Shown in pieces: positions 33,832 through 59,567 of a DNA stretch of 64,000 bases. The DNA is taken from contig OY253681.1 of the NCBI GenBank assembly GCA_958009085.1, forward strand, positions 682,001-746,000. Reading direction: 5' to 3'. How positions within the stretch are numbered: position 1 is the stretch's first letter; the number at the start of each line of letters is the position of its first letter. The translations under genes were made by a program, and so were the position numbers. Below the pieces are notes generated by a model. The model worked only from the letters and a program-made list of their open reading frames with translations. It made no database searches and was not told the origin of the DNA. The DNA comes from Protoeuglena noctilucae. Taxonomy: Eukaryota.

Positions 33832-35501
33832 TTAGGCCGAGGGGGTGAACTTGGTCGCGTTGGCGAAGCCTGCGGGGGAAAGAGTTGACATGGCTATCAG
33901 CTGACATCTGCATTGCAGGTTTGGTCAGCGGCGCACCGCTGGTCGGGCGCCTGTCCGCCACCACACAAATGGCATGCGACTACACGCCCCCCACTCAGCT
34001 CCCATGCGCCGGACTCACCGTTGTTGACCGTGGGGTCCGCGAGGTGCGCCTTGAGGTTGGCGATGGGGCCCTCGCCCGTCACGATGGCCTGGACGAAGAA
34101 GCCGAACATGGAGAACATGGCCAGGCGGCCGTTCTTGATCTCCTTCACCTTGAGCTCGGCGGCCGTCTCGGGGTCGTCAGCCAGGCCCAGGGGGTCGAAG
34201 GCGCCACCGGGGTACAGGGGGTCGAGGCCCTCGCCCGCGGGGCCGCCGTTCACACGGTAGCCCTCGATCAGGCCCATGAGCACCACCTGCGCGGGGTGGC
34301 GGCGGAAAGGAGAGATGCATGAGGAGCATGACGGATTGAGCCGGAAGCTGGTGCTGCTGCCGCGGCTGCCCATGACATGACCATCGCCGTGTCGCTGCGC
34401 GGCGCGCGCCTGGCAGGCCGTCACGGCGATGATGGACTGGGCGTGGATGAGGGAGGGGTTGCCGAGGTAGTCGAGGCCGCCCTCCTGGAACATCTGGGCG
34501 CCGGCCTTGAACCACACGGCCTCGCCGAACTTGGTGCCGTTGTCGGCGAGGAGCTCGGGCACGATGCAGCCCAGCGCGCCCATCATGGCCCAGCGGGCGT
34601 GGATGAGCTCGATCTCGCGGTACTTGGCGAACGTCTGGGGGTCAGCCGACAGGCCGGCCGTGTCCCAGCCGTAGTCGCCGGGGAACTCGCCTGCGATCGC
34701 GGGGCACAGGGGCTGGCGTTAGTTGAGGCGGGACGCGCCGATCGCGGGCCTCCGGCGCCCCGCGACGAGCCCCGCGACGCAAAATGAGCGAACGGAACGC
34801 CGCTGTGCCGCGAACGCCCCGCCTCGGGCGATCGCGGGGTCAATCCGGACCGGGTCCCGAAATCTCGTTCCGCTGTCGCGTGATCTCGTACGGGCACCCC
34901 GCGGGCGCGCGGCCGCTCGTGCGCGCGGCGCGGATCCTCACCCGTCAGGTACGCCGGGGGGTTCGTGAAGGGGCCGAGGTACATGGCGCGGTTGGGGCCA
35001 TAGAACTCGACGGCCGCGCGGGTCACCTGGCGGGTGCCCTGCGCGCGAGGAGCGAAAGCTGCTGCGTCGCGATCGAGAGAGGACGAGCGGATTGGGGCAG
35101 GCGGGGCCTCCGCCGAGCGGGCAGCGCGTGGGGCGGTGCGCAGGATCCCAGCCAAGTCCGCGACGACCGGGGGCGCGCTGCAGCGTCTCCCGGGGCTCGT
35201 CCCGCGCGCAACGAGCGAATCAAAGCCGGCAAATTCCATCGGAGGGGCGGGACAGGGTCCGGGGTGCCCAGACCGGCGCTGCCCGGGGCGCCAAGGGGTG
35301 GGCCATCCCGACGAGATCTCCGGCGAGACGGGCGCGCGGGCACTCGGACCCGCGCAGGGCGCCAGCACGGTGGTCACGGCGGTGCTACGCGCTGGTGGCG
35401 TCCGCTGCCAGCCTTGCGCGGGCAGCTGGGTCGCCGGGACGGGAGCTCACCTTGCCGGCGGCCACGGGGGCCTTGAGCGTAGCGCCGAGGAAGGAAGCCA
35501 T
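33832..35501 (-). CDS. LHCBM: Major light-harvesting chlorophyll a/b-binding protein of PSII (LHCII/LHCBM)
   Basis: Exons 35501-35451, 35038-34942, 34690-34410, 34286-34019 and 33869-33832 give [34 protein letters not shown]...[17 protein letters not shown]...[14 protein letters not shown]...[28 protein letters not shown]...ATKFTPSA*. Confidence 0.98.
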
Positions 35502-36556: not shown

Positions 36557-39500
36557 ATGCACACAGAGGAGACCGTCCGCGATTCCCTCGGTGAGCGGGG
36601 GCCGAGGGGCCCTGGCGTCGCGCAAGCCCCGATGCACTCGGATACATCAGCTCAGGCCCCACGCGCCCGGTTCTCCCCGTCGGCGGCGGGCCGGCCGCCC
36701 CTACCCACTTCGCCCCGCGTCGCCAACTTAGGGCCCCCCGCTCGCTCCCGCAGGCTCCCTGGCCGCTTCGCCGCACTCGCGCGCCTTCGACTCGCACACG
36801 TCCGCGGAGCAGGGGGCCGGGACGCCGGGAGGCAACCCTCGCAAGCGGAAGAGTCTCAGCAGCGACCCTACCCAAGAGGACGACGGCCTGCAGCGGAACG
36901 CCCAGGTGGGGGTTCTATCGATGGCCCGCAAGGGGCGCCTGTCACGCTCCGCCGCATCGGAGACGAGCGCCGCGGGCCGGGTGCGTGCGGCTGGCGATGA
37001 GATCCGCTCACGCGCATATCCTGCCCCGCACCCCCGCCTCTCTGCAGGGCCAGGTCTGCATGTACACGCTGGCGTGCCCCCCCGGGATGCGCCGCGATCA
37101 TTACCAGCTGGAGGACTTCGTGATTCACCGTGATCTGGGCACGGGGCACGTGTCGGTGGTGTATTTGGTGGAGGACCGTGCCACGGGGGTCGTGTGCGCG
37201 CTCAAGGCGTACCGCAAGAAGCGACTCACGGCCCTTAATCGCCGGCAGGTCTGCCGGGAGATTGCGATCCACGGCGGCCTGCAGCACGAGAACATCATTG
37301 AGCTCTTCTGCGCCTTCGAGGACGAGTACTGCTACTACCTGGTGAGCGCACGGTGCTCAGTGCCCGCGTGTGATGTCCAGGCTGGTCGCCCCTGTGTCGT
37401 GCCAACCGCGATCGGCGTATGCTTGGGTGCAGCCCCCCTGCTTATGCTGTGCACATGCACATCTGCACCTGCAGCTCTGCACCACCCACCGCACAACGCT
37501 CGACCACCGCATGACCCCTGTTGAGGCATGACGAGGCCGCATCGTGCTGTGCCCCCAGGTCCTCGAGTACGCAGCGCGGGGCGACCTGTTCACGGAGCTG
37601 AAGCGCCGCGGGGGCCAGCTCAACGAGAAGATCGTTGTCAAGTTTGTGCTGCACCCTTTCCTGTCTGTCCTGTCCTTTCTCCACTCCAAGGGCATCGTGC
37701 ACCGCGACATCAAGCCCGAAAACATCTTATTCAGCCAGAGCCGAGTGCTCAAGGCGAGGGGCGCGAGGCAGGGCCGGTCACGAGCAGCCTGTCGACGTGG
37801 CTAGATGGACGGCGCATGTTGTCACGACGGTCAGCCGCGGTGGTCACCTTATCCCAACCTTATCCAACCCAACCCTGCCCCGCAGGTGGCCGACTTCGGG
37901 CTCTGCATCGACACGGGCGTGGAGCGCCCCGTGACGCGGCTGGGGACGCTGGACTACATGGCCCCCGAGGTGCTCCTGTGCCCGGACAAGGCACTCCCCG
38001 AGGTGACGACGACGCCAGTACCGCTGCCTTTAAAAGGAAGCTGCGTATGCACCCCGCTGGTCCCTTTTCATCTCTCCGACCCGCCTCCCATCCACCCACA
38101 TCAACCCACCCTCACATCTCCCCTCACTCCCCAGGACAACAAGAACCTCGTGGATGTCGCCTACGCGGCCGAAGTCGACTCGTGGGCATGCGGCGTGCTC
38201 GCCTACGAGCTCCTCGTGGGCGCCCCGCCCTTCGCGCGCAACACGCGTGAGGAGACCTACCGCTCCATCCTGTCATCGGAAGTCCGCTTCCCGGCGTGGG
38301 TGTCCGACGAGGCGCAGGACTGGATCCGACGGTCTCTTGAAAAGGATCCCTCCAAGCGCCCGTCCGTCATGGACCTGCTCAAGCACCCCTGGGTGGGCCT
38401 GCACCAGCGCCGCCCCTCCCTCCGCACCGCATCCAACGTCGAAGCCCACCCCCGCGCCGCCGCACCCCACCTCCCGCCCCACCCCGAGGGCGACGTGGCG
38501 GACCACGGGCTCCTCAAGACCGGATCCCTCGCCAGCCAGGACGCCGGGCTGCTCCTGCATCACGGCGCAGCGCCGGGCGCGCGCGCGCACGTGCACCCCT
38601 CCGCCAAGCCCCAGGTGAGAGCCGCCCTGCTGTGCTGCCCGTGCTACAAGATAATCCTCGGGTGATACATCGCAGCGGCATCGCCTCCCTCGTGCTACCC
38701 TGTCGCCTATTTGCTGCCTGTAACATTGTCGATGTGGCCTCGCTTGGTGGCTGCCAATCCCCATCGTGAGCCCAACCGCTCCCCGACGCTCCCCGCAGGT
38801 CCCCGGCCTGGCCGCACACCCCGCCATGCCCGTCGGGCTGTACGTCGGCTTCCATGCGACGTTCACGAGTGCGGTGGACATCCCCCGTGGGAGCCCGGCG
38901 GGGCCGGGCCTGGTCATCGGTAGCGGCCCGCGCAAGCCGGGGCCTGCGGGAACCACGGAGGCCGCGATCGCGGGCGGAGGGTGGCACACGCCCGTGGTGA
39001 TGCAGCACAAGTCAGGGGCGGGGCACCGTGGGACGGTGTCAAATCGGGAGCAACTGCCGATGCAGCACACGCTGCACGCGGCGCTGGGCCGCCAGGCGCA
39101 GCTCCCGGGGAGCCCCGTGCAGGGCGCGAGGGTCGGGTCCCCGGCCACGCCCCTGGCCAGCGCAAGGCGGGACCCGTTGAGCGGTCTCGGGGCGGGGGAC
39201 GACCTGCTGGTCAAGACAAGCCAAGAAGTGAGCCTTACGGGCAAGCGGGAAATTCGAACAATGAGACTGGCAAACCGCGGCTTTCGCTGGGCTGAGAGCC
39301 CCTGGGCGCCCACCTTTCGCAACGCCCTTGCCCATCCTCGCCCCCGCAGCTTGCGCCGACCGTGACCAACCAGACCCAGTCGACCGACATTCTCGCCGTC
39401 CCCAAGGCCACCCGCTCCCTCGACCTCACGTCCAATCCCCTCCTGCGCGCCCCGGGGTCCCTCATCCGAGCAGGGACGTCCCTTCCCACCAAGGCAGGCG

Positions 39501-41228: not shown

Positions 41229-44200
41229 ATGACCGGAGGAGGCGCACCCGATGCCAATGGTGATTGCTCCCGCGTGCATGCCGTGTGAATCCGTATTCGG
41301 CACGGCGACGGCAATCACATACACAATCTGCGTCTCTTTGCGCCCAACGGCTGCGAAGCGGTCGCCGGCTTTTCCGCGCAGGAGGGCACACGGGGAAGCG
41401 TGGGCGCCCGTCGCTCACTCTGGCGTCGGGCAGCGGGAACTTGGGTGGGATCGAGGACTTGAACGACAACATGCGGTCCACCAAGCGATTCCTGTCCGAG
41501 ATGATGGCCAGCGGCCTGCAGGGCCTACGGATGTGCCAACCGGGCCCAGCAGAGGTGTGCGATGCGCGGAGAGAGCCTCCGACCAAACGACCTTGCAATA
41601 CGTACGATAAGGCTCGCGATGGTGCTATGCTGGGCTGCGCGTCTGTTCGCAGTGCGCGCGTACGACCATCTTGCCAATGCACGCTGCGCCCCTGTCCCGC
41701 AGCAGCCACCGGCCGCCGGTCGGGGCGAGCTATGGGTGTCGAGGCACGGCGGGGATGTCCGGGAGGTCAAAGCAGGGGATCAGTCGGACGTGGAGAGCTC
41801 TCGGATGGCGGTGGAGTCTGGGGCCGAGAGGCAAGTGGCTTTTCCCGCCCCTTGGCCGCGTGGCACCTTTCCAATCACGTCCCAAGCTCCTCCGACACTA
41901 AACGTGCTGCAGCGCAGCAACTTGCCTGACCCCGAGCCCGCCCGCCCCGCGCAGAGACTCGCACGTGCACGAAGTGTCGGGCGGTGCTGCCGACCTGGCC
42001 CGGACGCACTCGGGGTCGCCCTCTGCAGCCGCGTCGCCCCGCACCTCGTTTCCCTGGGCCATGGAGGGCACCGAGTCGTCACGGGGCATGGCCAGCGATG
42101 CCTCCAACAGCCGCAATCGCTCCACGTCTGGACCCACCTCCGGCATGCAGCCACCGCCTCCGCAAGCTGCGGGCGAGGCTCGCGGGACCCCGTCGCCCCG
42201 CGCGCTCGCTCCGACGGTGCTCGTCCGCGGCGCTGTGTCCTCGGGGCCGCCCGCGGCCTCCCTGCCCGCCTCCTGCCCAGGGTGAGCTGGGGAGCAACAA
42301 CAGAGCACGTTGCATGTCTGGGATGCGGCTGCAACTCGCGCATGACCTAAGTCTAAACACCTCGCCGTGCCTTGCAGCTCCGGGAGCCCTGCCGGACTGG
42401 ACATGGCGACCGCTGCGACCCAGGCCCTGCCACTGTCCCCGCCCCTGCCCCTCCCCATGCTCTCGGGCCGCCAGGCCTCGGACGGCGCTGTGTCGCCCTG
42501 CTCGCAACCGCCGGCCGCGCCCATCGCTGGCGCCGACCCGACTGCACCGTTCCCTTATGCACCCCGCGACGGCCATGGCATGGCCGCCGCCCCATCCCCT
42601 GCTGATGCCATGCAGGGAGGTCTCCCGGGGTCGCCCAGCGACTCGTTCGCCGTGCAGCTCAACCTGCGCAAGGTCGTGATCATGCGATCTGTGTCCCGGG
42701 GCGGGGGCGGGAGGGGGGCGCTCTCACCCCGCCGCCCCAGCAATCCAGGGCTGGTAGACAACGTGGGGCGCCCGCCGCTGCCCCCGGCCGCCGCCGACGC
42801 CGCCGCGGGGATCGATCGGATGGACAAAGCCGACCGCGCCGTGGTGGGCAGCAACCCAGGCAGCCCCTCCAGCGCGCCGTCGTTATGGGGCACCGCCATT
42901 TGGGACGGAGCGTCCCCTTGGGTCCTCAGTGCTGCGACGCCCGGCTCCGGGCTGTGGGCGGGTAGCACCGCCGTCGCCGCACACGGCACGACGCAGGTGC
43001 GGCCCGGGCAGCTGCTTTCCTGAGACAGACGACGCTTGCCACGCTGCGATGCTTCCGGGCGCCCGGTCCACGTCTAGTCCAGGGGGCCTGGTTGGCAGCG
43101 GCGACTCTGCAAGCAACCTCCAACCGTCATCTGGTATCCACGTAAACGCTCTCTTCGCCCGTGCAGGTCGGCCACACGACCAGCCGCCTGTCCCGGGGCG
43201 TGTCGGCCCGAGACCTCTCCGAGCGACCTCCCAGCTCCCTGCGCACCAGCGGGGGCTACCTGCGGGGCGCCAACCGGCCCAGCACGAGCATGTCCATGCG
43301 GAGCGAGGAGTCTTCGAGCTCCTCTGGTGAGGCCTGGACGGGGCTGGCAGGACAGGGCTGGCGATGGGGGCATGGGTAGGCATGCTTGCATGAAGAAAGG
43401 GCTACCGAGACGTTAAGCGCGTGGCTACGCGGCCCCCGCCCTTCTCCCACCCAGACACTTCATCCACCGGGTCCGCTCTCCGCTCCCACGCCACCCATGA
43501 CATGAGCGTGGGTGCCATCGCTCACTCGATCGGCAACCCCCGGGCCTCCACCGAGTCCCCGGCCGTCACGGGGCCCGACGGACTCGTGTTCCCGTCGCTG
43601 GCAATCGCCAACGCCAACGCCGCGGCCTCGCCGACGCTGCAGAGCCCCCTGCAGGGAGCGTGGGGCGCGCCGGGACCGCCCGGGGTGCGAAGACGTGTCT
43701 CGGTAGAAGGGTCTTCACGCCCGCGCGGCTTGGAGGCGGGTCCCGCGTTGGTGGAGGGCGCGTCATGGTGGGGCGGGCGAGCGCTGCGGGCCGAGGGGCC
43801 AGCAGTGGGGTACCCCTCGCCACGCTCGGCAGGGCTACGTGGGTTTGACCCGAGAGCGCTGTTCTGGCCCGGGCTCAGTCCGTCCTCCGAGGCGCCCGAT
43901 GGGGCGGGCGGGATGGGCCGAGGCGACTCTGGGCTGTTCGGGCGGGCGGAGGGCAACTCAGTGGACATGGAGAGGGGCCCAGAGGGCGCTGCAGCGGGGC
44001 CGACAGAGGGCCCCGGGGAGGCAGGGGGCCCGGAGGCGCTGCCCCTGTGGCGGCGGAGTTCGCTGTACGAGGCTGAGCGCGGACCGGGAGTCAAGAGAGG
44101 TGGGATGGTGTTTCGCATTGGCCACGCGAAGCTGGGCGTGGAAACGCCCCCTGACCTCCCCGCCCCACCGTCTCGCAGGATGAGAGAATCTCGGAGCTAC

Positions 44201-47200
44201 GTGATAGGTGATGTTCGATATTACCCGATTTGCAGGGCCCCTAATGCAGCCCACGCTGCGATTCAGGGTTCTTTGACCTGACTACTCAGAAACATGGCAG
44301 CCCCATTCTTTCCTCGCCATTCTTTCCTCGCTGCTGCTCCAGTCACGTATATGATGTTTGCCTGTGTTCGTAGGTTCAGGTCGGATTGAAAGCGGCGTTT
44401 TGCGGAGAGGCAGCAGCCCCGCACGTGCGCCCTGCGCGTCCCTGGGTCCAGCGACCACACAGGAATTGTCCGTGACACATGCGCGCGAAAGCCTCTGTCT
44501 CTTAGCAAGCCCCTGGACGCGATGGACGAGAAGGATAACGCCCAGCTCCTCGGGGAGTCGTCCCTCGAGGTGGATCAGCCCCCGCCATGGCCCGTCAAGG
44601 TGCGCCCTCCATTTGTTTCGATCGTTTGATTGGAAAGCGATCGCATGTCAGCGTGGCGTCCGCGACCGCCCCAGGTCTTCTTGTCACCACGCCAGCCCTC
44701 CCGCCCGCTGACAGGTCCTATCCAGTGTGTGTTGGTTCGCGTTCCAGGTCGCGTGCGCGTTGCTCCTGTGCGCCAGGTGCGTGCGCCTCTGTCATGCTCA
44801 GGCTTCGTGCGTTGCAGCTCGGACTGAAGCGGCGCGCCGGCTTCTCGCCCCGCGGTTGGCTTCGTCCGGCGCCGGTCCTCTTAAAGGTTTCCCATCCTCG
44901 GCGCTGGGCCCCCCCGACCCGCACTCCTTCCTCTCGCTCAACCCCGCAGCAACATCTATCTTTTCTTCCCGGGAAGCACCTCCGTGGCCCGCTGGCCCGT
45001 CATCTCCGCGCTTCTGGCGATCATTTTGGCGGACACGGCTGTGCAGCGGGCGTGTCACGCGTACGGCTACGTGGACTTGGAGTTTGAGACATGGGTACCC
45101 GAGATTTTGGACGTCGTGAGCTCGGTGAGCGGCGCGGCCCGATCACGACCCGGTGCAGCTGACCTGCTGTCATCGAAGCGTAGACGCACGGCGCGTTGGT
45201 GACGCCTCCTCGCCACGCCGCACGGCGACGCGACCCACGCCGAGCTGCCGTTGCCTGCAGCTCTCGACCCTCGCCGGGGCCCTCGTCCTCCATTTCGCCG
45301 GAAGCGCTCTTCAACTCGACTCGCCCATCTCGGCCTCCCGGTACACCGACCTGTCGCGCTGGGCGGACGTGTTGACGCGTGCCGGGGCCCATGGCCTTTT
45401 GCTGCTGGGCATCCTCAAGGTCTGCACCGCCGCCTTCCGCCTGTCGTGCTGGCGCGTGCAGCGATCCCGCAGCGCCATCAGCAACACCTCGAGCTCGCGC
45501 AACCTCCGCATCTTCATCCTCGTCATGTCGGCCGGCACCTCCTTTGCGTTTGTGGCGCTGGTGGAGGCCCTGGTGCAGGTGAGCCCGCGCTCGCAGTGAC
45601 TCCGGAACAACCATCCATCGGCCGGAGTCTCGCCGGGGGCGTCTGGGATGGCGCGCGCGTGGAAGATGGGTGACACGTCTGCACGCCCCGGGTACCCAAG
45701 CAACTTTAAACCTTTTCTCTCGCCTCCCAACGCCCCCGCAGATCTCCGCCACGTGGGGCATCCTCTCGGGCTTCCCAGGCCCCCTCCCCACCCTCCTGAC
45801 CAACGTGCTGGGCGCCATCACGGACGAGACGCAGTTCGCGCGTGTGGCGTCCACGGGCGTGTCGGACGCCAACGCCGGCGTCGACTCCTGCGTGCGCGTG
45901 CTATCTGTGTCCCGCGGCGCATGGGCCGTGCAGGGCTACCCCGCATCCGCTGCCGACTGCCTGACCGTGACGTCCGACAACGGCGCTGCCACCGGCACCT
46001 TCTGCATCCGCCACTGGTGAGCGAGGGCGAAGGACGCGGGCCAAGGGCGCGCTCTGTCGCATACTATGCTGATGAACGCGCTCAGGAGTCACCTGTTGAC
46101 CTTAGCATCACCCAAGGCCGGCAAGGTCGTGAAATAGCGATGGTTGTCCCTTGTCGCCGCAGCCACGTCATCCGCTACCGTGCGTCCAGCGCCACGACGG
46201 GCGTCCTGCTGGCGGCGCTGCTGGCGTTCATCGCGAGCGCGAGCTACTTCGGGCACGGGCAGGTAGTGTACCCCTTGACGCGTCTGCTCCGCACCATCGT
46301 GCGCGCCGCCTCCCATCTCGACGATGAGGGCATGCTCACGGACGCCGGCGAGCGCGCCGACGTGGCCATCACGGCCGAGGAGGCCGTGGCGCGTGTCGTC
46401 AAGGGGATCACGCTGCTCCTGAAGGCGTCATTCCGTGGCAAAGCCGTCGTGCGGCGGATGCTGCAGGAGGCCAACAAGGTCGACCGGGAGCACGACGTGG
46501 GCATTCTGGACATCTACGGGATGCGCAACTCGAGCCGCAACTCCGTCGGCGACGCGCCCCGCAGCGCCCACTCCAGGCGCTCCGACCGGGACCGGGACTC
46601 GGTGCACGACGGGGTCACGGTGGCCGTGGCCGCGCTGCCCACGGGCGCGCAGCGCGTGTCGGCGCCGCGCGTGACGAACCACGACGACGGGTCGGTCGGG
46701 GGCGCGGACCCCGGTGCCCAGCCCAGCGGCAACCCGGGCAGCGTGCCGGGCGCGTGGCGGCGCCTGCGGGGCGCCCCGGCCGCCTGGGCCCAGGGATCGT
46801 TACACGACATGCCGGAGGAGTTCGGGACGCTGGCGCTGGACGTGCTCCGCATGCCCCGCGAGCACCTGCCCGACCTGATCGTGGAGATTTTCCGGGCCAT
46901 GCGGCTGCTGGCGCCGAGGCCGGACCCGGCCGACCCCCTCCCGCCGCGCAAGGAGAGCCGGCACGACCGGGCGGCCATCGTGGCGGCGGTGATGGAGGCG
47001 GGGGGGCCCTCGGCTCCCTCAGGGGACCCCGAGCGCAAGAGCCTTTTCAAACGCGAGATGTCGCGGCAGACGACGGCGACGGACAACGCGGGGGGGGCAT
47101 CCCACACTCCCAAGCAGGGCATCTTCGTCAGGGAGGACACGCTACGGTGTTTCATACGCGAGGTGGAGAAACGGTACCTGGACAACCCGTACCACAGGTG

Positions 47201-49894
47201 AGACTGAGAAGACGCTCTGGGGTCACGAGAGGCTGCGGTGTTTCCATGCCGTGACGCGTGCCACTCGCTAGGTGTTGCGTGCTGATGGGAGCACGCGGTG
47301 GGCGTCACTTATACGACCATGTGACGGTGCATCTCCTATCAAACCTTGTATCGCCCTGCCTGTCCCTGCAGATGGGAGCACGCGGTGGACGTCACCCACA
47401 CGACCTTCGCCCTCCTGCGCATGGCCACGTCCTTCCGCAAGCGACATCTGTCCCGGGCGCAGCTGTTTGCGCTGCTCGTGTCGGCCGTGGCGCACGACAT
47501 GGGGCACCGCGGGGTGAGTGGTTGAGTGGGGGGAGGGTTGCTGGTATCTCTAACATGGGGCACCGCGGGGTGAGTGGTTGAGTGGGGGGAGGGTTGCTGG
47601 TATCTCTAACATGGGGCACCGCGGGGTGAGTGGTGGAGTGGGGGAAGGGTGGCCTGTTGATTGTGACATGGCACATGGGGTGTGAGTGGGGGAAGGGTTG
47701 CTTGTACCTCTAACACGGTGCAGTCATCAGCGGGCTTGGTGCGACCTCACCCTCACTTCGACTGCACACAGGTCAGCAACGCCCACCTGGTCAAGACGGG
47801 GGACATTCTGGCGCTCACCTACAACGACGCCAGCCCCCAGGCGAGGCCGGCAACGATGCGCACATGAGTCAGCTGTTGTTGCCCCTCTGCACGGCAACAC
47901 ACTGGGCCAACTCACTCCTACTCAATAACCCCCTCACTTTCCTTGCTGAGCTCCACGCCGTTTGCCAGGACGGGAGCCCTAGCGCAATGCAACCGTCAAG
48001 CCTACTCGCAACGTCGTTTGTTGCCCCTCGCAACACCGCTCCCCTCTCTCCAACCCCTCAGGAGAACATGCACGTGTCCTCTCTGTTCCAGCTGTGCCAG
48101 AAAGTGCCAGAGGCGGACGTGTTCGAGTGCCTGCCGCCCGACGCCTACACCGAGGTCCGCAAGCTCATGATCGACCTCATCCTCGACACGGACATGGCCG
48201 CCCACTTCCACCGGTGAGCAGTTACTATGTAATATATAAATGCACTCTAGTCATGTAATGGCTCATCTCATGATCGACCTCATCCTTGACACGGACATGG
48301 CCGCCCACTTCCACCGGTGATTGCTTAATAGAGGGGATGCATTTCAATGACAAAGGCAGGTGTGGCTGTGCAGGCTTTGCTGGGCAAGCATTCCTGTGCA
48401 CTTGTCTCGCTCCCGTCTCCCACCCTCACCTCACCCCACCTCGCACCCCTCACCCGTCTCTCCCCACCTCACCCCCCACCCCCCACCACACAGGGTGGCG
48501 GAGATGGAGGTGGTGCTGGGCAAGGCCGAGGCGGCAGGCGAGGGGTCGTCCAGCGAGTCCGAGAGCGGCGGGCGTCGCGGCGCAGTGGCACCCGCACCCA
48601 CAGCGCCCCGCATGACCCCCGAGGACGTGCGGTGCGTGCTCTTGGGACTGCTCCACGCCGCGGACCTGGGCAACTGCGTCAAGCCCATCCACATCCACGC
48701 GTCCTGGTCGGTGCAAGTCATCCAGGAGGTGAGGGGAGAGCGAGAGCGTGACTGTCATGTGCGTCGCTCCAACGCTCATGGCATCCAATCGTTGATCGAA
48801 CCCATGTCTTTCAGACAGCCAATCCAGATGCTCATGGCATTCACCGGTTGATCGGACTGTTAATCGACTGCATGTCTTTCTAGACACCCCCATGCACATG
48901 CTCATGTCGTTCCATCGTCGATCGACTCCACGTCTCCCTCCCCCGCAGTTCTTCAACGAGGCTCAGATCCAGAAGGAGCTGGGGATGGAGCCCGTGCCCT
49001 TCATGGACCCCGAGAAGTGCTTCGTCCCAACATCGCAGATGGACTTCCTTGAGTTCATCGCCAGGCCCCTGGTGAGAAGAGAGCGCTGCTTAGGGGTAGA
49101 TATTGGACGGCACGATGGCGACGGCACCTCACCTCTGACTCCCCATTATAGAGACTTGATCGCACTGCCCGGGTTGCCTCTGCCTCTGCCCCGGTGGGTG
49201 CATGTGGTATACTGCAGTCAGCAGTTCTCTTGCATGATGACGTGCCTCCTCGCTTCCTCATTCACAGTTCATGGCCCTCGTCCGGCTCGTGCCGGAGCTC
49301 TTGCCCCTGCTGGACAACATTCAGAGGAACTTCCGGCTCTGGGCCGCGCTGGGCGTCGAGGCGCGGGAGCCCGGGGACCCGGCGCTCGAGATCCTCGTGT
49401 CGGGGAGCGCCGAGTTCTTCAAGGCGGCGCGGGCGGCGGCGCGGGCGGCCGCCAAGGCCAACAGCAAGGGGTCGATCGGAGCCATGCTGACACCGCCCTA
49501 CGCGCGCACCCAGAGCGCCAAGCAGGCCTCCGCCAAGGGCGCCGTCACGGACGGGCCCAGTTCCGTGTTCTCCGGAGCCACGCTGAGCGCCGCGGAGGGC
49601 GGGGGCGCGGGGACGAAGCGGTCGGCTCTGATGCAGCAGGCGAGCGCAGTGCCGACGCCGGCGACCGGAACCGCTCCGCGCTCGGCGCTCCCGCCTGAGC
49701 ATCGTCTCTAAGCCATTCTGCAGGTGCTGGAGCTGGCGCCGGTGGTGAACGACAAGGTCGAGGCGGTGCTCGCCAAGAGCATCGAGGACCTGAGCGGCAT
49801 GGGCCTCCGCGAACCGCCCCCCTCCGTGACCCCCGGTGTTCTGGCGGACAAGGTGGCTGCATTCCTGGTTAAGACGGACCCCTCCCAGTGCTGA
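41229..49894 (+). CDS. Membrane-bound class I 3',5'-cyclic nucleotide phosphodiesterase, paralog 1 (long disordered N-terminus, 6-TM module, PDEase domain)
   Basis: Catalytic motifs are NPYHR|WEHAVDV, AHDMGHRG|VSN, YNDASPQ|ENMH, ILDTDMAAH, LLHAADLGN, QE|FF and SQMDFLEFIARPL. Six hydrophobic segments lie at 44714-46300. The Ser/Pro/Gly-rich exons at 41229-44207 can join in frame through the acceptor at 44462, which is less certain. Confidence 0.9.
47498..47650 (+). repeat. 56-bp tandem repeat spanning an exon end and splice donor (about 3 copies plus a decayed fourth)
   Basis: catggggcaccgcggg|gtgagtggttgagtggggggagggttgctggtatctctaa occurs at 47498, 47554 and 47610. Confidence 0.93.
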
Positions 49895-50247
49895 TGGTGC
49901 CAATACCACCAGCACGGCACACACCCGCGTCGCCCGTGTAGCCAGCCCAGCAGTCCATGTCTGGCGGCGCATGGAGAGGCATGGAGAGGTCGTGCGTGTG
50001 GTATCTGCTCTTTAGCGAACATCATCGTAGACTTCAGCGCCCATTCCGTGACGAGCAATTAAACCGATTTTCTGACTCGTCGTACCGGTCGAACCGACCT
50101 CTCGACGCCATCTTCTGCGGCGGGCCGCAACATCACAGTAGCTCCTACACTCCTTACCGCCCAAAAAGTGGATGGCACTCCCACGGCGGCGCACGAGTGT
50201 GTTCGCATGTGTGGGCATCGCCCGCCGGCTGAGGATGTCGGGGCGCG

Positions 50248-53200
50248 ATGCCGCTGCTTGAATGTACATCTCCAGATGCGCTGCCGGTTGCGCGGTGCCG
50301 GCCCGTCGTGGCTACGGTGGGTCAACGACGCCTCGGCACCCCGGAGCCACGCCTCGACGAGAGGGCCGTGGCACCTGATTTTCGCGACGTCAGATCGCGA
50401 CAAATTGACTGAGCCGGTCGCCTGGAATAGCACTCCGTCCCCATTCGCGCCTGCAGGTCCTGGCCAGCCCGTGGTGGTTCCTGTGGTCGGTCTTGCTCGC
50501 GGCCATCATGTTCTTAAGGTAATAATGAGCATTTTGCTCTGCTCGCGACCGTCGGATAACCGCAGCGATGCCTCAGTGGCCGGCGAACGCCTGGATGCGG
50601 AGGCGGCTCCTGCTCCGTGCCTGCAGCGACGGCTACGTCGGTCTCAGGACCCCGTACAATCGCAGCGTCCCTCTCCTCGTCGTCGTCCCTTTCGCCGTCC
50701 TGGCCGAGGCCGCCGTGCAGCGCTGGATGCACTGGGCGGGCTACGTGGACTTCGGCGCGGGGATTCTGAGCTGGTGAGCGGCTCTCGCCCCCCGGGGACG
50801 GCGCGGAGGGACGAGCATGTCATGTTCGTAACTTCGAACCCGCGTGCCCGCGCCGCAGGTCCTTGGAGGCGATGGACGTGGTGGCTGCGGTGGGCTTCTT
50901 GGTAGCCGACTACGTGCAGGGCCGGGAGCTGTACTCGAGCCGGACGGTGGCCGTCGGGACGACGATAGAGAACCTGCGGGAGGAGTACGCGGGTGAGGCG
51001 TCCTGCGCGGCCCGCTTGCGCGGCGGTCGATGCTCGTTGCATGCGGATTATATCGGGTACGCAATACGCGACGCCCGCGGCGTCCCCGGCCGCAGTGTTC
51101 GGCGTGACGGCCTTCGGGATCCTGATACTGACGATGCTGAAGACGGGCGTGTCGCAATACCGCGCCATGTGCTGGCACGCGGCCGACCCGACCAAGATGC
51201 ACGCCCGCACGCACACGGGCAACAACATGCGCATCTTCCTTATGATCGTCGTCATCTTCAAGACCGTCGGGTTCGCTGCCATGCTCCAGACCGTGGTGAG
51301 GAGCGTTGGCGTGCATGGCCGGCCGGCTCGACGAACTGCAACCCAGCGCCTGATGTGGTGCGTGGGCCCTACCTTTCCCCCCCCGCTCCTCGCCCGGCCT
51401 CGCAGGTCCAGATGAAGGCGAGCCTCGACCGCGGATCCTCCATGGTCGCCCCCGCCAACGTCGTCCAGTTACTGGCGCCGATCACCGATGAGACGCAGGC
51501 GAGCGTTGCATTGCGAGGCCAGAGGCAGGGCTCCGTGCATCTCACAACGCCTCTGGCACCGACTGACTCGTGAAATCTTGACAACGTGCTGAGAGCGGCA
51601 GTCTCCTCGTGTTGCACTGGCCACGTCGTCGACCTCGCATCGAGTCCAGCCAGCGCGTGAGACAGGAACCGCCCTCACCTGCTCTGCACCCCCGCAGCTG
51701 TCGGTGGCGGCCGCGGAGCTCGGGTCGGCCATCCGCTCCGTATCGTGCATGCGCATCGCGGCCGTGCAGCGCGGGGCGTGGACGGTGCAGGTGGCTGGGC
51801 CTGCGGAGGAGACGCTGCTGATCGTGAGCAACGATGGCGCGCTGACGGCGTCGTTCGACGTCGAGGGGTGCAGGAGTGAGATGGCGGAGAGCTTCGGGGG
51901 ATTCAAAGTGGTGAGTGGCTGATGCTTGGCGGGTGGTGGATCGATGCGGATCGTGCTTCGGCTGCCCCTCATTGGTGCCTTGGCTGAGGCGGGCAAGGGC
52001 ATGTGACCATGCCGCCCTGCTCTCGCTAGCTGTGCCATAGCTAATCACGAGATACATGCGCTCACAACAAGTTCTCTGGCACCCCTTTCTCGCAGGCCAT
52101 GCTGGCGATCGACATCGTGTGGCTCCTCTTCAGCTTCAGCGCCGCAAGGGCCTTCGTCGTCAAACCTCTGCTGGACCTCCTCAAAGGGTGAGCAATAGTA
52201 TTTGTAGTAGTAGTAGTAGTAATAGGCACATCTCAATGTATGTGCGTCGTGTGTCGTTCGACAATCGTCTCGGTGGCACAAGCGACTGTGTTTGCAGTGG
52301 TGCCGAACAGTTGGTCAGCCACGCCATACAGCAGAGACTCGTTATCGCGCTGTGTCCCTTACCCGCAGCATCATCTCTTTGTCGTCCCATCTGGACGGGG
52401 ATGGGCTGTTAAGGGACGCGGTGGCCGCTCCCAACACCAAGGGCGCCGGGGCTGACCGGGGCAGTGACGCCAAGCAAGTGTGGGCGGAGGTGAGCGGCGG
52501 TAGTGGGGTTGGTAGAAGCTTACACTGTACGTGTTTGCTGGGGACGCTTATGAAGCCATAATGCCATTGCTCACCCCCCGACAGCCATGCCCACTCCCAC
52601 CCTGTTGCTTCATTGCTCACCTCAATTCTCATCCCTCTCGCACAGTCATACCCCCTCTCACCCCCTCTCACCCCCTCACCCACTCTCACCCACTCTCACC
52701 CACCCCTCTCTGGAACCCCCAGGAGGCCGTGGCCCGCACCATCAAAAGCATCCGGCTGCTGATGAAGGCGTCGTACCGGGGGCAGACCATCGTGAAGCAG
52801 GTGCGACTGTGACTGTGACTGAGACTGACTGAGACTGTGACGGTGACGGTGACGGTGACTGTGAGGGGTGGTATTGATGTTGATACATCTATGTTGTGAG
52901 TGATCCGCACTGCACGCCGGCGCTACCCAGGTGCTCCGGGAGGTGGGCAATCGTGACGAGAAGGAGGGCATGCAAATGCTTTCCATGTTCGGGGCGAAAG
53001 AGGGGGAGGACGTGCCGTCGAACCACCAGAGGCGGGCCATCAAAGTGCGCACCAAGTCGCGGGTCGCGCACGCCCTGGCCAAGACCATGACCAAGAACAA
53101 GGGGTCCGCGGGCACCACCCCCATCAGGTGAGATTCTGCAAAGAGACACACACACGCGGGAGGGTAGTATTCTCTTGATTGGCGAACGAAGCGCGAGCGT

Positions 53201-56200
53201 GGTGGTTGCGGCGACGGTGGTGGGCGCTTGCCTTGACCCGTGCCCTCGTTGCCTCAGCACCTGACTGTCATCGTCACTCTCGCTGCCACCCCCACTACCA
53301 TCCCCACTGCCACCCTCACTGCCACCCTTGTTACCACCCCCATTGCCACCCCTATCACCCCTATCACCCCCACCCCCCCAGTTCCGAGATAGACGGTGCT
53401 AACTCCCAGACCGTCACCCCTTTGGACTCGACCAGTGCCGGCCTCTCCAGCTTCGTGACCGCCAGCCCCGATGGGTGGTGGGCGGTGGACTGCCTGGCCA
53501 TGTCGAGGGAGACGAGCTTCGATTTTGTGGTCGAGATGTTCCGATACATGAAGTGAGTGGGATATATATGCTGATCTGTCATGTGGGGATGGATGTTCTG
53601 ATACATGGAGTGAGAGCTGGCATGAGTTGTAGTAATTATTTTGTGTTGTGCAGTGAGCAGTGGTGCCGCTCGTCGGTCGTGAGCAGTGCTCTCTGTCTGC
53701 CACTTGACCCCAACCCCGAAACCCATTCCTTCGTCCCCTCTCTCTCCCCACCACCCCAAGCCTGATCACCTGCACCGCTCTCCCGCTCACCACCAACCCC
53801 AGCCCCTCTCCCCTCTCCATGCATCCAACCCCATCCCCTCCCTCCCCACCCCCCAGGCTCATCCAGGAGGTCCCAAAAGCCGCCACCAAGGACCCCGGGG
53901 AGCCCTCCCGCCCCTGCCGCGTGTCCGTGGCCGAGCAGGCCATGAGGAGCGGCAGCGGGGAGGAGGGGGTGGCGCGGGTGCGGGAGAAGACGCTCAGGCG
54001 GTTCCTCGCAGAGTGCGAGGCGCGGTATTTGCAGAACCCGTATCACAGGTGACACTTGTGATGTAGCAAGGGCGATGGTTGGGGTGTGACGGTACCTGCA
54101 GAACCCCTATCAAAGGTGAGGTGTGCTCCTGGCAGAGTGCGAGGCGCGGTACCTGCAGAACCCGTGCCACAGGTGAGCATGCGAGGGTGGTAGTGAGGGG
54201 AGGGAGGGCGGTAGCTGTGTGGTGGGTGGCGATTGCCGGAGTGGTGCGTGCTGGTAGCTAGTATACAACCATGGGTGCAGCTGTGAGGGCTGGATGAGGT
54301 AGAGTGAAGGTTAGAGTCTGGTGCTCACTTACCAGTCCATCACATCGCCTTCCACTGCTAACCCTGTCTCTCTGCAGATGGGAGCACGCGGTGGACGTGA
54401 CCTTCTCGACCATGCAGCTGCTCCACCGCGCCGAGCGGTTCGTGCAACAGCACCTGTCCCCCGTGGACGTGCTCGCGTTGATGGTGGCCAGCATCGCGCA
54501 CGACGTGGGGCACCGGGGGCTGTCGAATGGGTTCCTGGTCAAGACCAGGGACGTGCTGGCCATGACCTACAACGACGCAAGCCCGCAGGTGACTTGTAAG
54601 AGAGGGGGGGATGAGAGGTGGTTGATTGTGGTTGGTGGAAGGCGAATGACGCAAGCCCACAGGTGAGTGACCTGTGGGGGATGGGGAGAGTTGGGGGCCG
54701 GCGGATGATGTGTCATATTATTGCTATCTCCACACTGTGCCACTCATTGCCCCTTCCACTCTCCTCGTCATCTGCTCACACTGACAACACACACACAGTC
54801 ACACTCGCATCCACTGATTTCGTTCCCCCATCTCAGGAGAAGCTCCACGCGTCCACGCTGTTCGTGATATGCTCGAGCACACACTCAATTACAATCATCC
54901 ACCCCATTCCCTTTTCTCAGGAGAAGCTCCACGCGTCTACCCTCTTCGTGATATGCTCGAGCACCCCCGAGGCCAACGTCTTTGAGCTGCTGAGCCCCGA
55001 GCAGTTCACCCACGCACGCAAGCTCATAATCGACGCCATCCTCGACACGGACATGGCGTGCCACTTCTCCAGGTGACTATATGTGATTGTGATTAATTGG
55101 TGTTTATATTAGTGACCAGTTGCTATCTATGCTCATTGTCGACACACACATGGCACCGACTGACCAGTCAGTCGCAGCTCGACTTCCAATAAGAACTGAC
55201 CTCTCCTATTCTCACCCCGCTGCTCCCCAGGCTCGCGGCATTGAGAATTACAATAACAACTAACACACCCACCCCTCATCCCTTCCCACCTCCAGGCTGG
55301 CTGCGTTGGAGGTGGTGGTGAAGGACCACGCCACGCAGACATGGGAGGCCGTGAGAGTGGCGCAGGCAGACGCAAAGACGGGACCGCACGGGCAGAGCAA
55401 CCTGGCAAATGGCGTGGGGAGTCGTGGGGTGGGGGGCGCGGTGGAGAGGTGAGGGGGGGGGAGGGAGGGGTTGGGCAGTGGGGGTCGTGGATAGGAGGCG
55501 AGAGAGGAATGGGGACGGTTACTGTTGAGTGCGGACATGCCATGGTTGTCACCCCATGTGCTGCTGATCACACGCGACGCTCACCTCATTCGCTCCGACC
55601 GATCCCATCACACGTGCAACGCTCAGCCCATGTATGCACGTCCTTTATCCCCCATCCCCACCCTCCACCCCAACCACACATTGCTTGCATCACCCCCACC
55701 CCCTCCCCCCAACCCCCCCCCCCAGTTTCTGCCCCCCCGAGGTGCGCTCTATCCTGCTCGGCCTCCTGCACGCCGCGGACCTGGGCAACAGCTTCAAGCC
55801 CGTGCACCTGCACGCCAAGTGGGCGGTGCAAGTGTCGCAGGAGTTCTTCCGAGAGGGGGAGGAGCTGAGGGTGAGGTGGTATGTGGATGTAATAATGATT
55901 GATATGGCTCAGCAAGGGTGGCGGTGAGGGTGGTGGCATGTGGGGTGGTTGCGAGAGGGGGAGGAGCTGAGGGTGAGGTGGTATGTGGATGTAATAATGA
56001 TTGATATGGCTCAGCAAGGGTGGCGGTGAGGGTGGTGGCATGTGGGGTGGTTGCGAGAGGGGGAGGAGCTGAGGGTGAGGTGGTATGTGGATGTAATAAT
56101 GATTGATATGGCTCAGCAAGGGTGGCGGTGAGGGTGGTGGCATGTGGGGTGGTTGCGAGAGGGGGAGGAGCTGAGGGTGAGGTGGTATGTGGATGTAATA

Positions 56201-58388
56201 ATGATTGATATGGCTCAGCAAGGGTGGCGGTGAGGGTGGTGGCATGTGGGGTGGTTGCGAGAGGGGGAGGAGCTGAGGGTGAGGTGGTATGTGGATGTAA
56301 TAATGATTGATATGGCTCAGCAAGGGTGGCGGTGAGGGTGGTGGCATGTGGGGTGGTTGCGAGAGGGGGAGGAGCTGAGGGTGAGGTGGTATGTGGATGT
56401 AATAATGATTGATATGGCTCAGCAAGGGTGGCGGTGAGGGTGGTGGCATGTGGGGTGGTTGCGAGAGGGGGAGGAGCTGAGGGTGAGGGTGGTTGGTTGT
56501 TTGATGACAGATGACTGAAGATGAGAGGTCGACTTGTGTTTGTTATAATCCACCTCACCTCACCTCACCTGCCCCCGCAGAAGATCGGTGTCTCCCCCAT
56601 CCCCCTGTTCGACGAAAGCAAGTGCTACCTGCCACACTCCCAGATGGTGAGCAGATGCTAGCTCTTTCAATGCTTGTATCATAACTTACACAGTCGCAAC
56701 CAACACCAAGTGCATATGTGAGACATGTTGTTACTACATGTATCATGCATTAGTATTCATACTTACGCACTTCTCCCCATCACTCCCCACCACTCCCAGG
56801 AGTTCCTGGACTTCATCGCCCGCCCGCTCTTCGTGGCCCTCTCGCGCCTGGTCCCCGAGCTGACACCGACCGTCCTGGCGCTCCGCCAGAACTTCCAGTT
56901 TTGGGCGATGATGGCCGTCGCGGACAAACAGGCGCTGGGATACGAGGACAAACCGGTGCCGCTCACGCGACAGGCGGGGCTGCTGGGGCGGGGGATGGGA
57001 ATGGGAATGGGGAGGAGGCGGCGGGGGGAATCGAACGTCGCACCTCTCCCCGAGGCTAGCGGGGGCTCTGTCATAGGGTGGCTGCGGCCGCAGGGGCGGC
57101 GAGAGAGCCGCAAAGTGGGTGGCGGGGAGGACGGGGTGGCGGTGACGGAGCTGTCGATGACGCACGGCAGCACGGGTGGGGGTGGGGGTGGGAATGGGCC
57201 GCGCACCAGTCGCTTAGCGTGGGGGCCAGCGGTGGGGGATGGGGTGGGGAGGAGGGAGGCGAGCGTGGATGCACACGGTGGGGGTGCGGGTGCGGGTGCG
57301 GGTGGGAGGAAGAGTGGGAACTATGGCAGGGGTGTGGCGGGGCCTGGGGGAGCAGTGCCGGGAGGGCGGAGGCGGGGCAGCGTGGATGGGCGGTCGTTGG
57401 ATTTGGTGAGGGGGATGCTGGGGCGGGCGCCGCGGAAGGTTTCTGGCACGATGCGTCCCTCCGGGCTGGGACTGGGCCCCTCGCAGCGGCAGCTGCACGT
57501 GGGGTGGGATCACGGGAGGGGTGGGGGTGTCAAGGGCGACGGTGCGGTACCTGAGTCGGGGTCGGCGGAGCTGTGGCGGATTGGCATGGAGCTGCAGGGC
57601 GTGGAGAGCCGGGCGTGGGCGGCAATTGTGCTGGGGAGGAGCTTGCGGGGTCTGCCGCCGTTCGAGGCCGCGCTGGCGTGCCAGGCGAGTTTGGGGGGTG
57701 AATGGGGTGGGTGGGTAGAGTTGGTGGAGTTGGTTTTGATTACTAAGCTGCAATGGGTTGCTCTGCGCGCTTCACGACCCCTCTGCTGCCCCGTCACACC
57801 TCGCACCCCTGCAAACACCGCTGTCACCTCTCGCTCCCCTCACACCCCTCACACGCCTCACACCCCTCCCCTGACCTCCTCACCCCTCTATCCACCCTCG
57901 CCCCCCCCTCAGCTCGTCGATGAAAGGAAGGTCTCTGACTTCCCCCATGTGGTCCCCAGCGAAAGCGTGGCCCCTGAGATAGTGGCACTGGTCGACGCGC
58001 TCATGGGCGTGGGGGTGCGGGACGTGCCACAGGTGAATGGGGTGTATTTAGTACTATTGCATTTAGTATTATCTGTATCTACTGAACACCAGTGGATACA
58101 TGGATGTATGGTCGTGTGATTGTGGGGGTGCGGGACGTGCCACAGGTGAATGGGGTGTATTTAGTGCTATCTGTTGCAACAGCAGTGGACCAGATAGTGG
58201 ATATGAGCGGGTGTGACTTTGCCAGGGCAGCGCGTGCGTAACACTTCATGACACTCTAAGCGTCACAGAGAGTGTCACCTCGACACCCTTCCCCGTCATC
58301 CCTGTGTCCACAGAAGGTGCTGGACGAGAGCCAGCTGGACCGCATGGACCAATTCAACAAGAAAGCAGAGGCACCACCCACGGCGTGA
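50248..58388 (+). CDS. Membrane-bound class I 3',5'-cyclic nucleotide phosphodiesterase, paralog 2 (6-TM module + PDEase domain)
   Basis: Catalytic motifs are NPYHR|WEHAVDV, AHDVGHRGLSN, YNDASPQ|EKLH, ILDTDMACH, LLHAADLGN, SQEFFREGEELR|KIG and SQM|EFLDFIARPL. The TM exons align with paralog 1 (VLASPWWFL vs VLSSVCWFA; LAEAAVQRWMHWAGYVD vs LADTAVQRACHAYGYVD; ITDETQ in both). The start codon is tentative. Confidence 0.9.
55851..56488 (+). repeat. 102-bp tandem array (6 full copies + partial) starting in the last 20 nt of an exon and carrying the splice donor in each copy
   Basis: The unit gagagggggaggagctgagg|gtgaggtggtatgtggatgtaataatgattgatatggctcagcaagggtggcggtgagggtggtggcatgtggggtggttgc starts at 55851, 55953, 56055, 56157, 56259, 56361 and 56463. 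Confidence 0.97.
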
Positions 58389-59567
58389 AAGCGGATGGGG
58401 CGAGAAGGACTGCCATCCACCATCATATACGGCCGGCGGTTAACTGACTAGTCACTGTCTGTGGCTGGCCGTCACCTGTCGAGTCGCCGTCATTTGCCGA
58501 GCATCGAGTTTTCCGGAGACGTCCTCACGCCCTCACCGGCCCGTCTCCGCCACCAATACCCCAACAATACTCTACGCCTGTCGCCACTCAGGGCCGCTGC
58601 CGCGCACGATAACACGGGCAGGCTCGCATCGAGCGATACCCCTCTGCCCACGGGGCATTGTACCCGACGCCGCGGCGGCCAACTGGGGCCCTAAGATACT
58701 CAGCATTGCGATGGGTGTCCCTCTGCTGTCCGTCTCTCATGATGCGACGCCTGGACCTCGCTGTGCATCCGCCAACCCTTGCCATCGCCGCCGGCCGCCG
58801 AGCACCGGCCGCCGAGCGCGGCACTGGCAGCACACATGATGATCAGATGATAATGATGATATGATGCTGCCACCCCTCTCTTAGCTCACATGGGTCGGTT
58901 TCATGCGCAGGCACTCGCCCAGCGCGTGCTGCAAGCCACGCCGCCCTCTCTCAGCTAGGGCCCCCTCTCAGCCACGGTCGGTGCTGCATGCGGCGAGTCA
59001 CGCAGTGCGCACTGCAAGACACGCCACGCTCTCTCTAAGCTCTGAGAACTGGCCGGTGCCTCGTGTTGCCCACGCCGCACCGCCATGCGTGCTCACACAG
59101 AGCACCACGGCCCCCCGGCTTTTGCTGTTTTCCAGCGCACGCCTGTTGCGATGTGCTGCACACGCCCTGTCTCGGTCCCACCGGACCCCAGGCCCCCATG
59201 ATCTCCTTTGCAACTAGGAGACCGTAACCATTCCTTTCGCATTCAGCATGCGTCGCATACACGTCATGTGCACGTCACACGGACAGTGTGATAACACCGG
59301 CGGTGTGACGACCCCCTTTCTCTGTCCCGCGTGCCGAGCGCTGCGTGCCGCCCCTTTTCGCGATGCTTGGCTTTTCGCCACACCCCCGTCATGCCCCCCC
59401 TGGCTGGCCAGAGATGGGCCGTGCCACGGTGCGTGACGGCCTGCGTTTTCACGGCTCCCTCAGTCAACCTGGATTTCTGTTTCTTTTCCTTCCCCTTGTG
59501 ACGTACCCCCTCCTCGGCAGGCCCATGTGTGCATATGAGAAACACCCACGAGTCTCTTTTGAATCGT

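Follow-up and report, generated by a model that had tools for sequence, protein, structure and literature searches.

Two adjacent genes for cyclic nucleotide phosphodiesterases (PDEs) in the genome of Protoeuglena noctilucae raise the question of whether the membrane region in front of each enzyme senses a signal or only holds the enzyme in place. They lie on the forward strand of a stretch of 64,000 nucleotides (nt), called the window below (assembly GCA_958009085.1, contig OY253681.1, positions 682,001 to 746,000; all coordinates are those of the window), and are referred to as gene 1 and gene 2 (Table 1). We consider it somewhat better than an even bet that the pair are old tandem paralogs from a rare family, restricted to green algae, of class I cAMP/cGMP PDEs that are integral to the membrane and have a sensing ecto-domain. 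A previous sequence-only reading had assigned the membrane part to a channel-like module; the interpretation favored here does not support an N-terminal module homologous to ion channels or voltage sensors.

The gene 1 protein matched PDEase_I (PF00233) over the whole profile (positions 1-238 of 238) with an E-value of 1.8e-65 and 221.4 bits (cut-off 24.8). Exons of both genes matched the same family, gene 2 exon 54379-54588 with 2.3e-18 and 67.2 bits. Both translations contain YHRWEHAVDV, AHDMGHRG/AHDVGHRG, ENMH/EKLH, LDTDMA, HAADLGN and SQMDFLEF/SQMEFLDF, in agreement with the earlier claim of an intact catalytic domain. The H..H, HD..H, E..H, TDM and Q elements in these stretches are what we take to be the metal-binding and catalytic His/Asp motifs of class I PDEs and their invariant substrate-clamping Gln. 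Both genes are predicted to encode class I 3',5'-cyclic nucleotide PDEs that hydrolyze cAMP and/or cGMP. The catalytic domain of a homolog, P0003, matched solved class I PDEs (trypanosomatid PDEB1, PDE1B, PDE4, PDE9) at about 1e-30.

Gene models were drafted with a simple splice-aware dynamic program and then corrected by RNA. The window is GC-rich (0.59-0.72), and coding frames appear as runs of third-position GC content above 0.9 between short introns. A neighboring reverse-strand gene for an LHCII-type chlorophyll a/b protein (Table 1) identifies the source as a green alga. RNA data came from four runs of one study, representing at most two samples, and their contigs were placed on 44000-58600. 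Spliced contigs for the locus were present in all four runs, which contained 0.40-0.47 of the sampled words of 44400-54300, approximately the exonic share. For gene 1, a contig of 3890 nt spans transmembrane (TM) and PDE exons (44177-44597, 45260-45574, 46162-47194, 49267-49635, 49720-50075), and the record gaps between its pieces equal the summed lengths of the proposed intervening exons. In addition, P0019, a 1068-residue open reading frame (ORF) from JGI/IMG and Logan transcript contigs and a member of the 90% cluster of the gene 1 exon-6 ORF, is letter-identical to the spliced gene 1 model.

For gene 2, the evidence comes from RNA joints. At least 15 were listed, and among the joints listed all belong to this gene. 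Twelve of 15 share the depth of one 2519-nt contig, from 50315/50456 to 55446/55724, and this contig therefore reaches from the TM exons across the greater part of the PDE domain. The joint list contains 15 of the 20 introns; those after 50518, 50773, 50992, 55072 and 55870 were deduced from frame, splice sites, contig-length arithmetic and alignment to the paralog, and the last three exons, which rest on other contigs, are less sure. Exact look-up of the genomic ORF 56725-58116 returned fragments only, with no full-length gene 2 protein to match the model. The gene seemed to be without its first helix until a 62-nt exon was added at 50457-50518. This exon follows from the constant "side 61" in the joint list, encodes VLASPWWFLWSVLLAAIMFL and is homologous to the 62-nt exon 44715-44776 of gene 1.

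With the 3890-nt and 2519-nt spliced contigs and P0019, the TM and PDE exons are found on one transcript, as the sequence-only reading had assumed. Since P0019 is identical to the gene 1 model, the objection that the two sets of exons belong to separate transcripts fails. The limits given earlier for the pair, 44714..54048, were only partly right. The first is close to the start of the second coding exon of gene 1 (44715) and omits the ATG at 44522. The second is the end of a gene 2 exon carrying only the first PDE residues, while the domain continues to about 56883 and the coding sequence to 58388.

All introns of both genes (n = 32, 12 of them in gene 1) are GT-AG or GC-AG. Four are GC-AG, a high share for one locus; they start at 47841, 49640, 51499 and 57685, always with the donor CAG/GCGAG (slash at the exon end), and were fixed by RNA joints in three cases and by identity to P0019 in one. 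The stretch 55850-56493 consists of 6.3 copies of a 102-nt unit with 99% identity. The array begins within the final 21 nt of gene 2 exon 55726-55870, and every copy repeats the exon end together with its GTGAGG donor site. RNA contigs use the first donor (a loose end at 55870 goes on into the opening bases of exon 56581), and the result is a 710-nt intron that consists mostly of decoy donors. At 47497-47650, a 56-nt unit (2.8 copies, 97% identity) copies the 3' end of gene 1 exon 47372-47513 together with its donor. Gene 1 has an extra intron at this repeat, and the coding sequence that it divides forms one 211-nt exon in gene 2.

Contigs of all four RNA runs leave the window sequence at 49449, with loose letters behind, and enter it at 49926, with loose letters before, and the summed RNA depth in 49357-50330 exceeds that in the remainder of gene 1 by a factor of 2-5. 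The breaks and the depth could come from another transcript, from an isoform, or from a similar copy elsewhere with the same 3' stretch. One contig (run X1) connects 57097 with the earlier position 53208 through 16 other letters. This joint is probably an assembly artefact; both sites lie in low-complexity Gly/Ala/Pro-rich coding or intronic repeats.

The two genes have five intron positions in common, and 365 of 959 aligned residues are identical. Identity is highest in the PDE region (186/352), followed by the sixth TM helix (TM6) with the linker (41/108), the loop between helices 5 and 6 (32/96) and helices TM1-4 (44/138), and falls to 16/79 in the spacer after the linker (residues 421-520). 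Common intron positions, this level of identity and the identity to P0019 together place the observation beyond chance. The motifs quoted in the sequence-only reading of the tandem pair were all recovered in the spliced translations: RNLRIFILVM/NNMRIFLMIV, ITDETQ, SCVR/SCMR, RGAW, VVYPLTRLL/VVKPLLDLL and the linker EAVAR..K.I.LL.KAS[F/Y]RG, as well as LAD/LAE in helix 2 and ILDVV/AMDVV in helix 3.

Hydropathy analysis (Kyte-Doolittle, window 19) bore out six hydrophobic helices per paralog, at residues 27-45, 64-82, 99-117, 142-168, 189-207 and 315-333 of gene 1 and equally six in gene 2 once exon 50457-50518 was included. Six TM helices ahead of the catalytic domain match the architecture of six-TM PDEs, which is a likeness of architecture only and not a shown homology. 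No Pfam family was detected on the TM exons or on the N-terminal part of the full gene 1 protein at E<=10. A sequence profile search of the PDB with the family alignment gave nothing below E 0.8, the solved PDE structures being without TM regions, and the part of P0003 that is N-terminal of residue 415 matched no solved chain. A CWR motif and a basic cluster are conserved after helix 4. The helix 4/5 loop is strongly basic, hence presumably cytosolic, and therefore the Cys-bearing helix 5/6 loop would be outside and the PDE domain inside.

The same helices were compared with the channel-like module of the earlier claim, which had described them as S1-S6 helices homologous to the N-termini of Paramecium and Plasmodium ACalpha, fused to a PDE. 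What speaks for a diverged channel or voltage-sensing domain (VSD) is a set of charged residues: helix 2 carries an acidic one, helix 3 Asp and helix 4 Lys/Arg (in gene 1, LAD, ILDVV and ILKV). They occur together in gene 1, gene 2 and the homolog P0005, and all three are absent in P0012. The basic residues in helix 4 of gene 1 and its exit (K158, R165, R170, R173, R175) are 7, 5, 3 and 2 apart and do not form an RxxR series; this absence had already been noted in the sequence-only reading.

Ion_trans (PF00520), under which we assume the ACalpha N-termini to fall, served as a stand-in for them. The family was not matched by P0019 or the TM exons (E<=10), or by four long homologs (E<=1). We then compared profiles with hhalign, using a TM-module alignment of gene 1, gene 2, P0005, P0012, P0002 and P0003, and a bacterial-only reference set of 29 full-length Ion_trans matches (E 1e-45 to 1e-54) from 301 sampled bacterial genomes. 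The probability was 0.3% and the score 17.1, over 20 out-of-register columns. One of 30 column shuffles equaled this score and 2 of 30 block shuffles exceeded it (best 22.1), and the positive control, one half of the set versus the other, reached 100%. In the Foldseek and VIA-align searches, nothing with the TM fold of a channel, VSD, rhodopsin or cyclase stood out from the generic helical matches. With the P0005 model, VIA-align returned only generic helical hairpins (best Z 7.2); the TM1-4 part of this model is poor, with a predicted local distance difference test score (pLDDT) of 35-65, too poor to count against a four-helix sensor bundle. One stretch of gene 1, GFPGPLPTLLTNVLGAITDETQ, resembles a pore helix with a T.E.-type filter and was considered as such. 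This candidate was dropped, since neither gene 2 nor the homologs conserve the stretch, and it is predicted to form helices of the ecto-domain.

The loop between helices 5 and 6 is unlike a pore loop: it is about 100 residues long, carries no conserved filter motif and is predicted, at modest confidence, to be an alpha/beta domain. It is conserved, as had been noted, at slightly more than the approximately 90 residues first given. The first loop Cys is present in 7 of 8 covering rows of the family alignment, the second in 7 of 7 and also in gene 1 (RHC), and on this conservation the loop probably bears a disulfide. The position of ITDETQ is more variable over the family (ITDETQ, VTVDEV, GTTSEA or GSSDQE). 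Two independent AlphaFold2 (AF2) predictions gave the same order of elements, alpha-alpha-beta-beta-beta-beta. For gene 1 exon 45742-46014 (9-row alignment), two helices and four strands were predicted with pLDDT 65.7 and a predicted TM-score (pTM) of 0.50. For P0005 1-445 (12-row alignment), the overall values were pLDDT 62.5 and pTM 0.37, with 70-86 in the loop, TM6 and linker. In the P0005 model, helix 5 projects beyond the membrane; a second helix and then four strands come next, ahead of TM6.

Fold comparison of the loop model with VIA-align gave LC8/dynein-light-chain-like proteins as best rows (Z 6.0-6.8, 79-82 residues aligned), and 19 of the 50 rows listed were bacterial extracytoplasmic PDC/Cache/PAS-like sensor domains (Z 3.5-5.3). 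All of these values are under the noise bar of 8, and the matches say only that the modeled loop would be a two-layer alpha/beta sandwich. Language-model look-alikes of P0003 1-260 were bacterial TM-sensor-TM-HAMP proteins, with scores of 0.87-0.89, which below 0.9 constitute a lead only.

TM6 and the juxtamembrane segment are the most widely conserved N-terminal piece. Conserved after helix 6 are P-L..LL, LDD.GM and an amphipathic RVV.A..LL.KAS.RG.AVV.R.L.EA, and the P0005 model has juxtamembrane helices at 350-365 and 388-408. Because of the P-L..L...G pattern and the bacterial TM-sensor-TM-HAMP look-alikes, the segment was tested against HAMP (PF00672), represented by 20 HAMP segments from E. 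coli K-12. The hhalign probability was 1.4% and the score 12.7 over 13 columns, a score reached by 5 of 30 shuffles, and the positive control (half versus half) gave 98.3%. Likewise, Pfam detected no HAMP match on the exons, the full gene 1 protein or the four long homologs. The segment was thus not accepted as a HAMP domain.

Relatives are few. A phmmer search with gene 1 exon 6 against 1,835,955,588 representative proteins yielded 13 matches at E<=0.001, its own ORF and 12 other database proteins, all of which match in TM6 and the juxtamembrane region. In the four long relatives (956-1044 residues; P0002, P0003, P0005, P0012), PF00233 is the sole credible Pfam family, and the remaining matches are fragments over TM6 and the juxtamembrane helices. 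Among the long relatives, P0005 contains the complete set of six helices together with the loop, P0002 begins at helix 4, and a longer cluster mate of P0003 also has helix 4. The sole relative with an organism name is P0012, a protein of the pedinophyte green alga Pedinophyceae sp. YPF-701. Word-index protein searches provide weak evidence of rarity: none longer was found with gene 1 exon 6, P0005 60-460 found itself only, and the family profile, searched for longer proteins, found P0005 and P0003 only. The ESM Atlas gave no usable match for P0005 1-470.

A further family fragment, P0009 (219 residues; from genomic contigs of up to 399 kb), shares 39% identity with gene 2 residues 380-590 and 30% with gene 1. 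As it is identical to neither gene, its sequence suggests at least a third paralog in this or a related genome.

In the interpretation that we favor, each PDE protein would be made from a single spliced transcript, and its six-helix bundle would expose the alpha/beta domain, located between helices 5 and 6, at the extracytosolic face. From helix 6 the chain would run into the conserved cytosolic helix-loop-helix, then through low-complexity linkers into the intact cytosolic catalytic domain. The N-terminal module would act as a receptor-like regulatory and targeting unit. By analogy with known sensors, the ecto-domain may respond to a ligand or to the redox state of its Cys pair and signal via helix 6 and the juxtamembrane helices, the output being a local breakdown of cyclic nucleotides tuned at one membrane. 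Regulation via the loop rather than by voltage, as the sequence-only reading had suggested, appears most plausible.

Several observations weigh against this interpretation. Between the juxtamembrane helices and the catalytic domain lie about 240 residues of low-complexity sequence with poor conservation. Both AF2 models are of modest confidence, and the alignments behind them had 12 and 9 rows. No fold match reaches the noise bar of the tool, the best loop rows being dynein light chains and not sensors, and Foldseek returned 0 matches at E<=0.001 for the P0005 1-445 model or the gene 1 loop model. The linker after TM6 is not a HAMP domain, and the disulfide is read from Cys conservation.

The best surviving alternative is a plain anchor, in which the six helices only tether or target the enzyme (for example to the flagellar or plasma membrane), the loop is a spacer, and regulation occurs elsewhere, for example by linker phosphorylation. 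We regard this as possible, if on balance doubtful. Six-TM class I PDEs described as anchors are already in print (PMC10865986, PMC5617230), and no known sensor family was matched by sequence. The spacers between membrane module and catalytic domain are long, poorly conserved and Ser/Arg/Gly-rich; spacers of this kind speak against a rigid allosteric link and in favor of a simple anchor. On the other hand, the two Cys, LDD.GM and RVV.A..LL.KAS.RG are kept in distant family members, which is more than a tether needs, and the loop is predicted to fold. If the module were only an anchor, the pair would be an ordinary lineage-specific PDE duplication.

A more ambitious version of the sensing interpretation, which strikes us as unlikely, is a eukaryotic class I PDE of receptor type. 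Its disulfide-bearing ecto-domain would sense ligand or redox state and switch the PDE via helix 6 and the helix-loop-helix, and the charged triad of helices 2-4, buried, would add ion or voltage sensitivity. If true, the proteins would be the degradative counterpart of receptor cyclases and would contain an unnamed transmembrane signaling module. Homology to the channel-like S1-S6 module itself is very improbable, with no Ion_trans match, hhalign scores at the level of shuffles, no RxxR series and a loop that is not pore-like.

The comparison with known systems was made by description of their architecture. Six-TM class I PDEs include human PDE3 (NHR1, six helices) and all Plasmodium PDEs (PMC10865986), Giardia GlPDE has 8-9 TM helices and two extramembranous regions of about 140 residues (PMC5617230), and most Toxoplasma PDEs are polytopic-membrane class I PDEs (PMC7720076). 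The algal proteins resemble PDE3 and the Plasmodium falciparum, Toxoplasma and Giardia enzymes in having an N-terminal multi-helix region and a C-terminal class I domain, without GAF, PAS, UCR or REC. Unlike these, as described, the algal family has a conserved Cys-bearing loop of about 100 residues and a juxtamembrane helix-loop-helix. Toxoplasma TgPDE4 is annotated with a domain for ion transport (E-value 4.5e-09; PMC7720076), so that a channel-type module on a PDE has already been annotated, whereas the algal proteins have no Ion_trans match. The same paper reports many substitutions in the catalytic residues of TgPDE4, while both algal genes keep theirs.

Two further systems resemble the predicted sensor arrangement. 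E. coli PdeC is a cyclic di-GMP PDE with a CSS domain, two conserved periplasmic Cys and redox control (PMC5897775), and the algal proteins may be analogous in placing an extracytosolic two-Cys domain between two TM helices before a cytosolic nucleotide PDE. They differ from PdeC in that the catalytic domain is of the eukaryotic class I HD type, not EAL, and in the four additional helices ahead of the sensor pair. Pfam returned no match to the CSS, Cache, CHASE or HAMP families for the gene 1 protein and the four homologs. In choanoflagellate Rhodopsin-PDE, a class I PDE is likewise joined by a linker to a receptor part made up of several TM helices. It is a light-sensing rhodopsin, whereas the full gene 1 protein has no match to a rhodopsin family.

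The architecture as a class has been published before: six-TM class I PDEs are described, and so is even the idea of a channel on a PDE. The N-terminal module is without a Pfam family, and a literature search, with most subscription journals outside its reach, found no paper on this algal module. Little is known on how algae shape cyclic-nucleotide signals at membranes. In animals and parasites, the TM regions of membrane class I PDEs have been treated as anchors; here, the TM region bears a conserved, Cys-bearing domain predicted to be folded and outside. The family would thus offer a candidate ligand- or redox-gated PDE that is tractable, and it might supply a new component for engineered control of cAMP/cGMP. 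Coordinates of all features, including other genes recognized in the window, are collected in Table 1.

Table 1. Coordinates of the two PDE genes, their parts and neighboring genes in the window (aa, residues of the protein; CDS, coding sequence).
Feature	Coordinates	Strand	Basis or content
Gene 1 CDS, 13 exons, 1068 aa, ATG at 44522	44522..49894	+	RNA contig coordinates, splice-site arithmetic, identity to P0019
Gene 1 exons 1-7	44522-44599, 44715-44776, 44950-45124, 45261-45578, 45742-46016, 46163-47197, 47372-47513	+	
Gene 1 exons 8-13	47772-47840, 48062-48213, 48494-48728, 48949-49071, 49268-49639, 49724-49894	+	
Gene 1 TM1-TM5 exons (aa 27-211)	44715..45578	+	hydropathy; alignment with gene 2, P0005, P0002
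Gene 1 putative ecto-loop (aa 212-312, intron 46017-46162 inside)	45742..46190	+	ITDETQ, SCVR, RGAW, second conserved Cys (RHC)
Gene 1 TM6 (aa 315-333) and juxtamembrane helix-loop-helix (aa 340-406)	46197..46472	+	PLTRLL..., LDDEGML, EEAVARVVKGITLLLKASFRGKAVVRRMLQEA
Gene 1 class I PDE catalytic domain (aa 646-906, introns inside)	47190..49321	+	PF00233, 1.8e-65
Gene 2 CDS, 21 exons, 1191 aa	50248..58388	+	RNA joints, frame, splice sites, contig-length arithmetic, paralog alignment
Gene 2 exons 1-7	50248-50316, 50457-50518, 50627-50773, 50859-50992, 51096-51295, 51406-51498, 51698-51910	+	
Gene 2 exons 8-14	52096-52187, 52369-52489, 52723-52800, 52931-53127, 53382-53552, 53857-54048, 54378-54588	+	
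Gene 2 exons 15-21	54921-55072, 55296-55448, 55726-55870, 56581-56646, 56800-57684, 57913-58032, 58314-58388	+	
Gene 2 TM1-TM6, putative ecto-loop (51406-51910) and juxtamembrane helices (52096-52800), introns inside	50457..52800	+	
Gene 2 class I PDE catalytic domain, introns inside	54041..56883	+	limits by alignment to gene 1
F-box protein	7600-8169	+	
Band 7/SPFH protein	31333-31656	+	
LHCII-type chlorophyll a/b protein	34020-34718	-	1e-48 to PF00504; about 1e-100 to green-lineage Lhcb chains
Protein kinase, at least two exons	36967-38650	+

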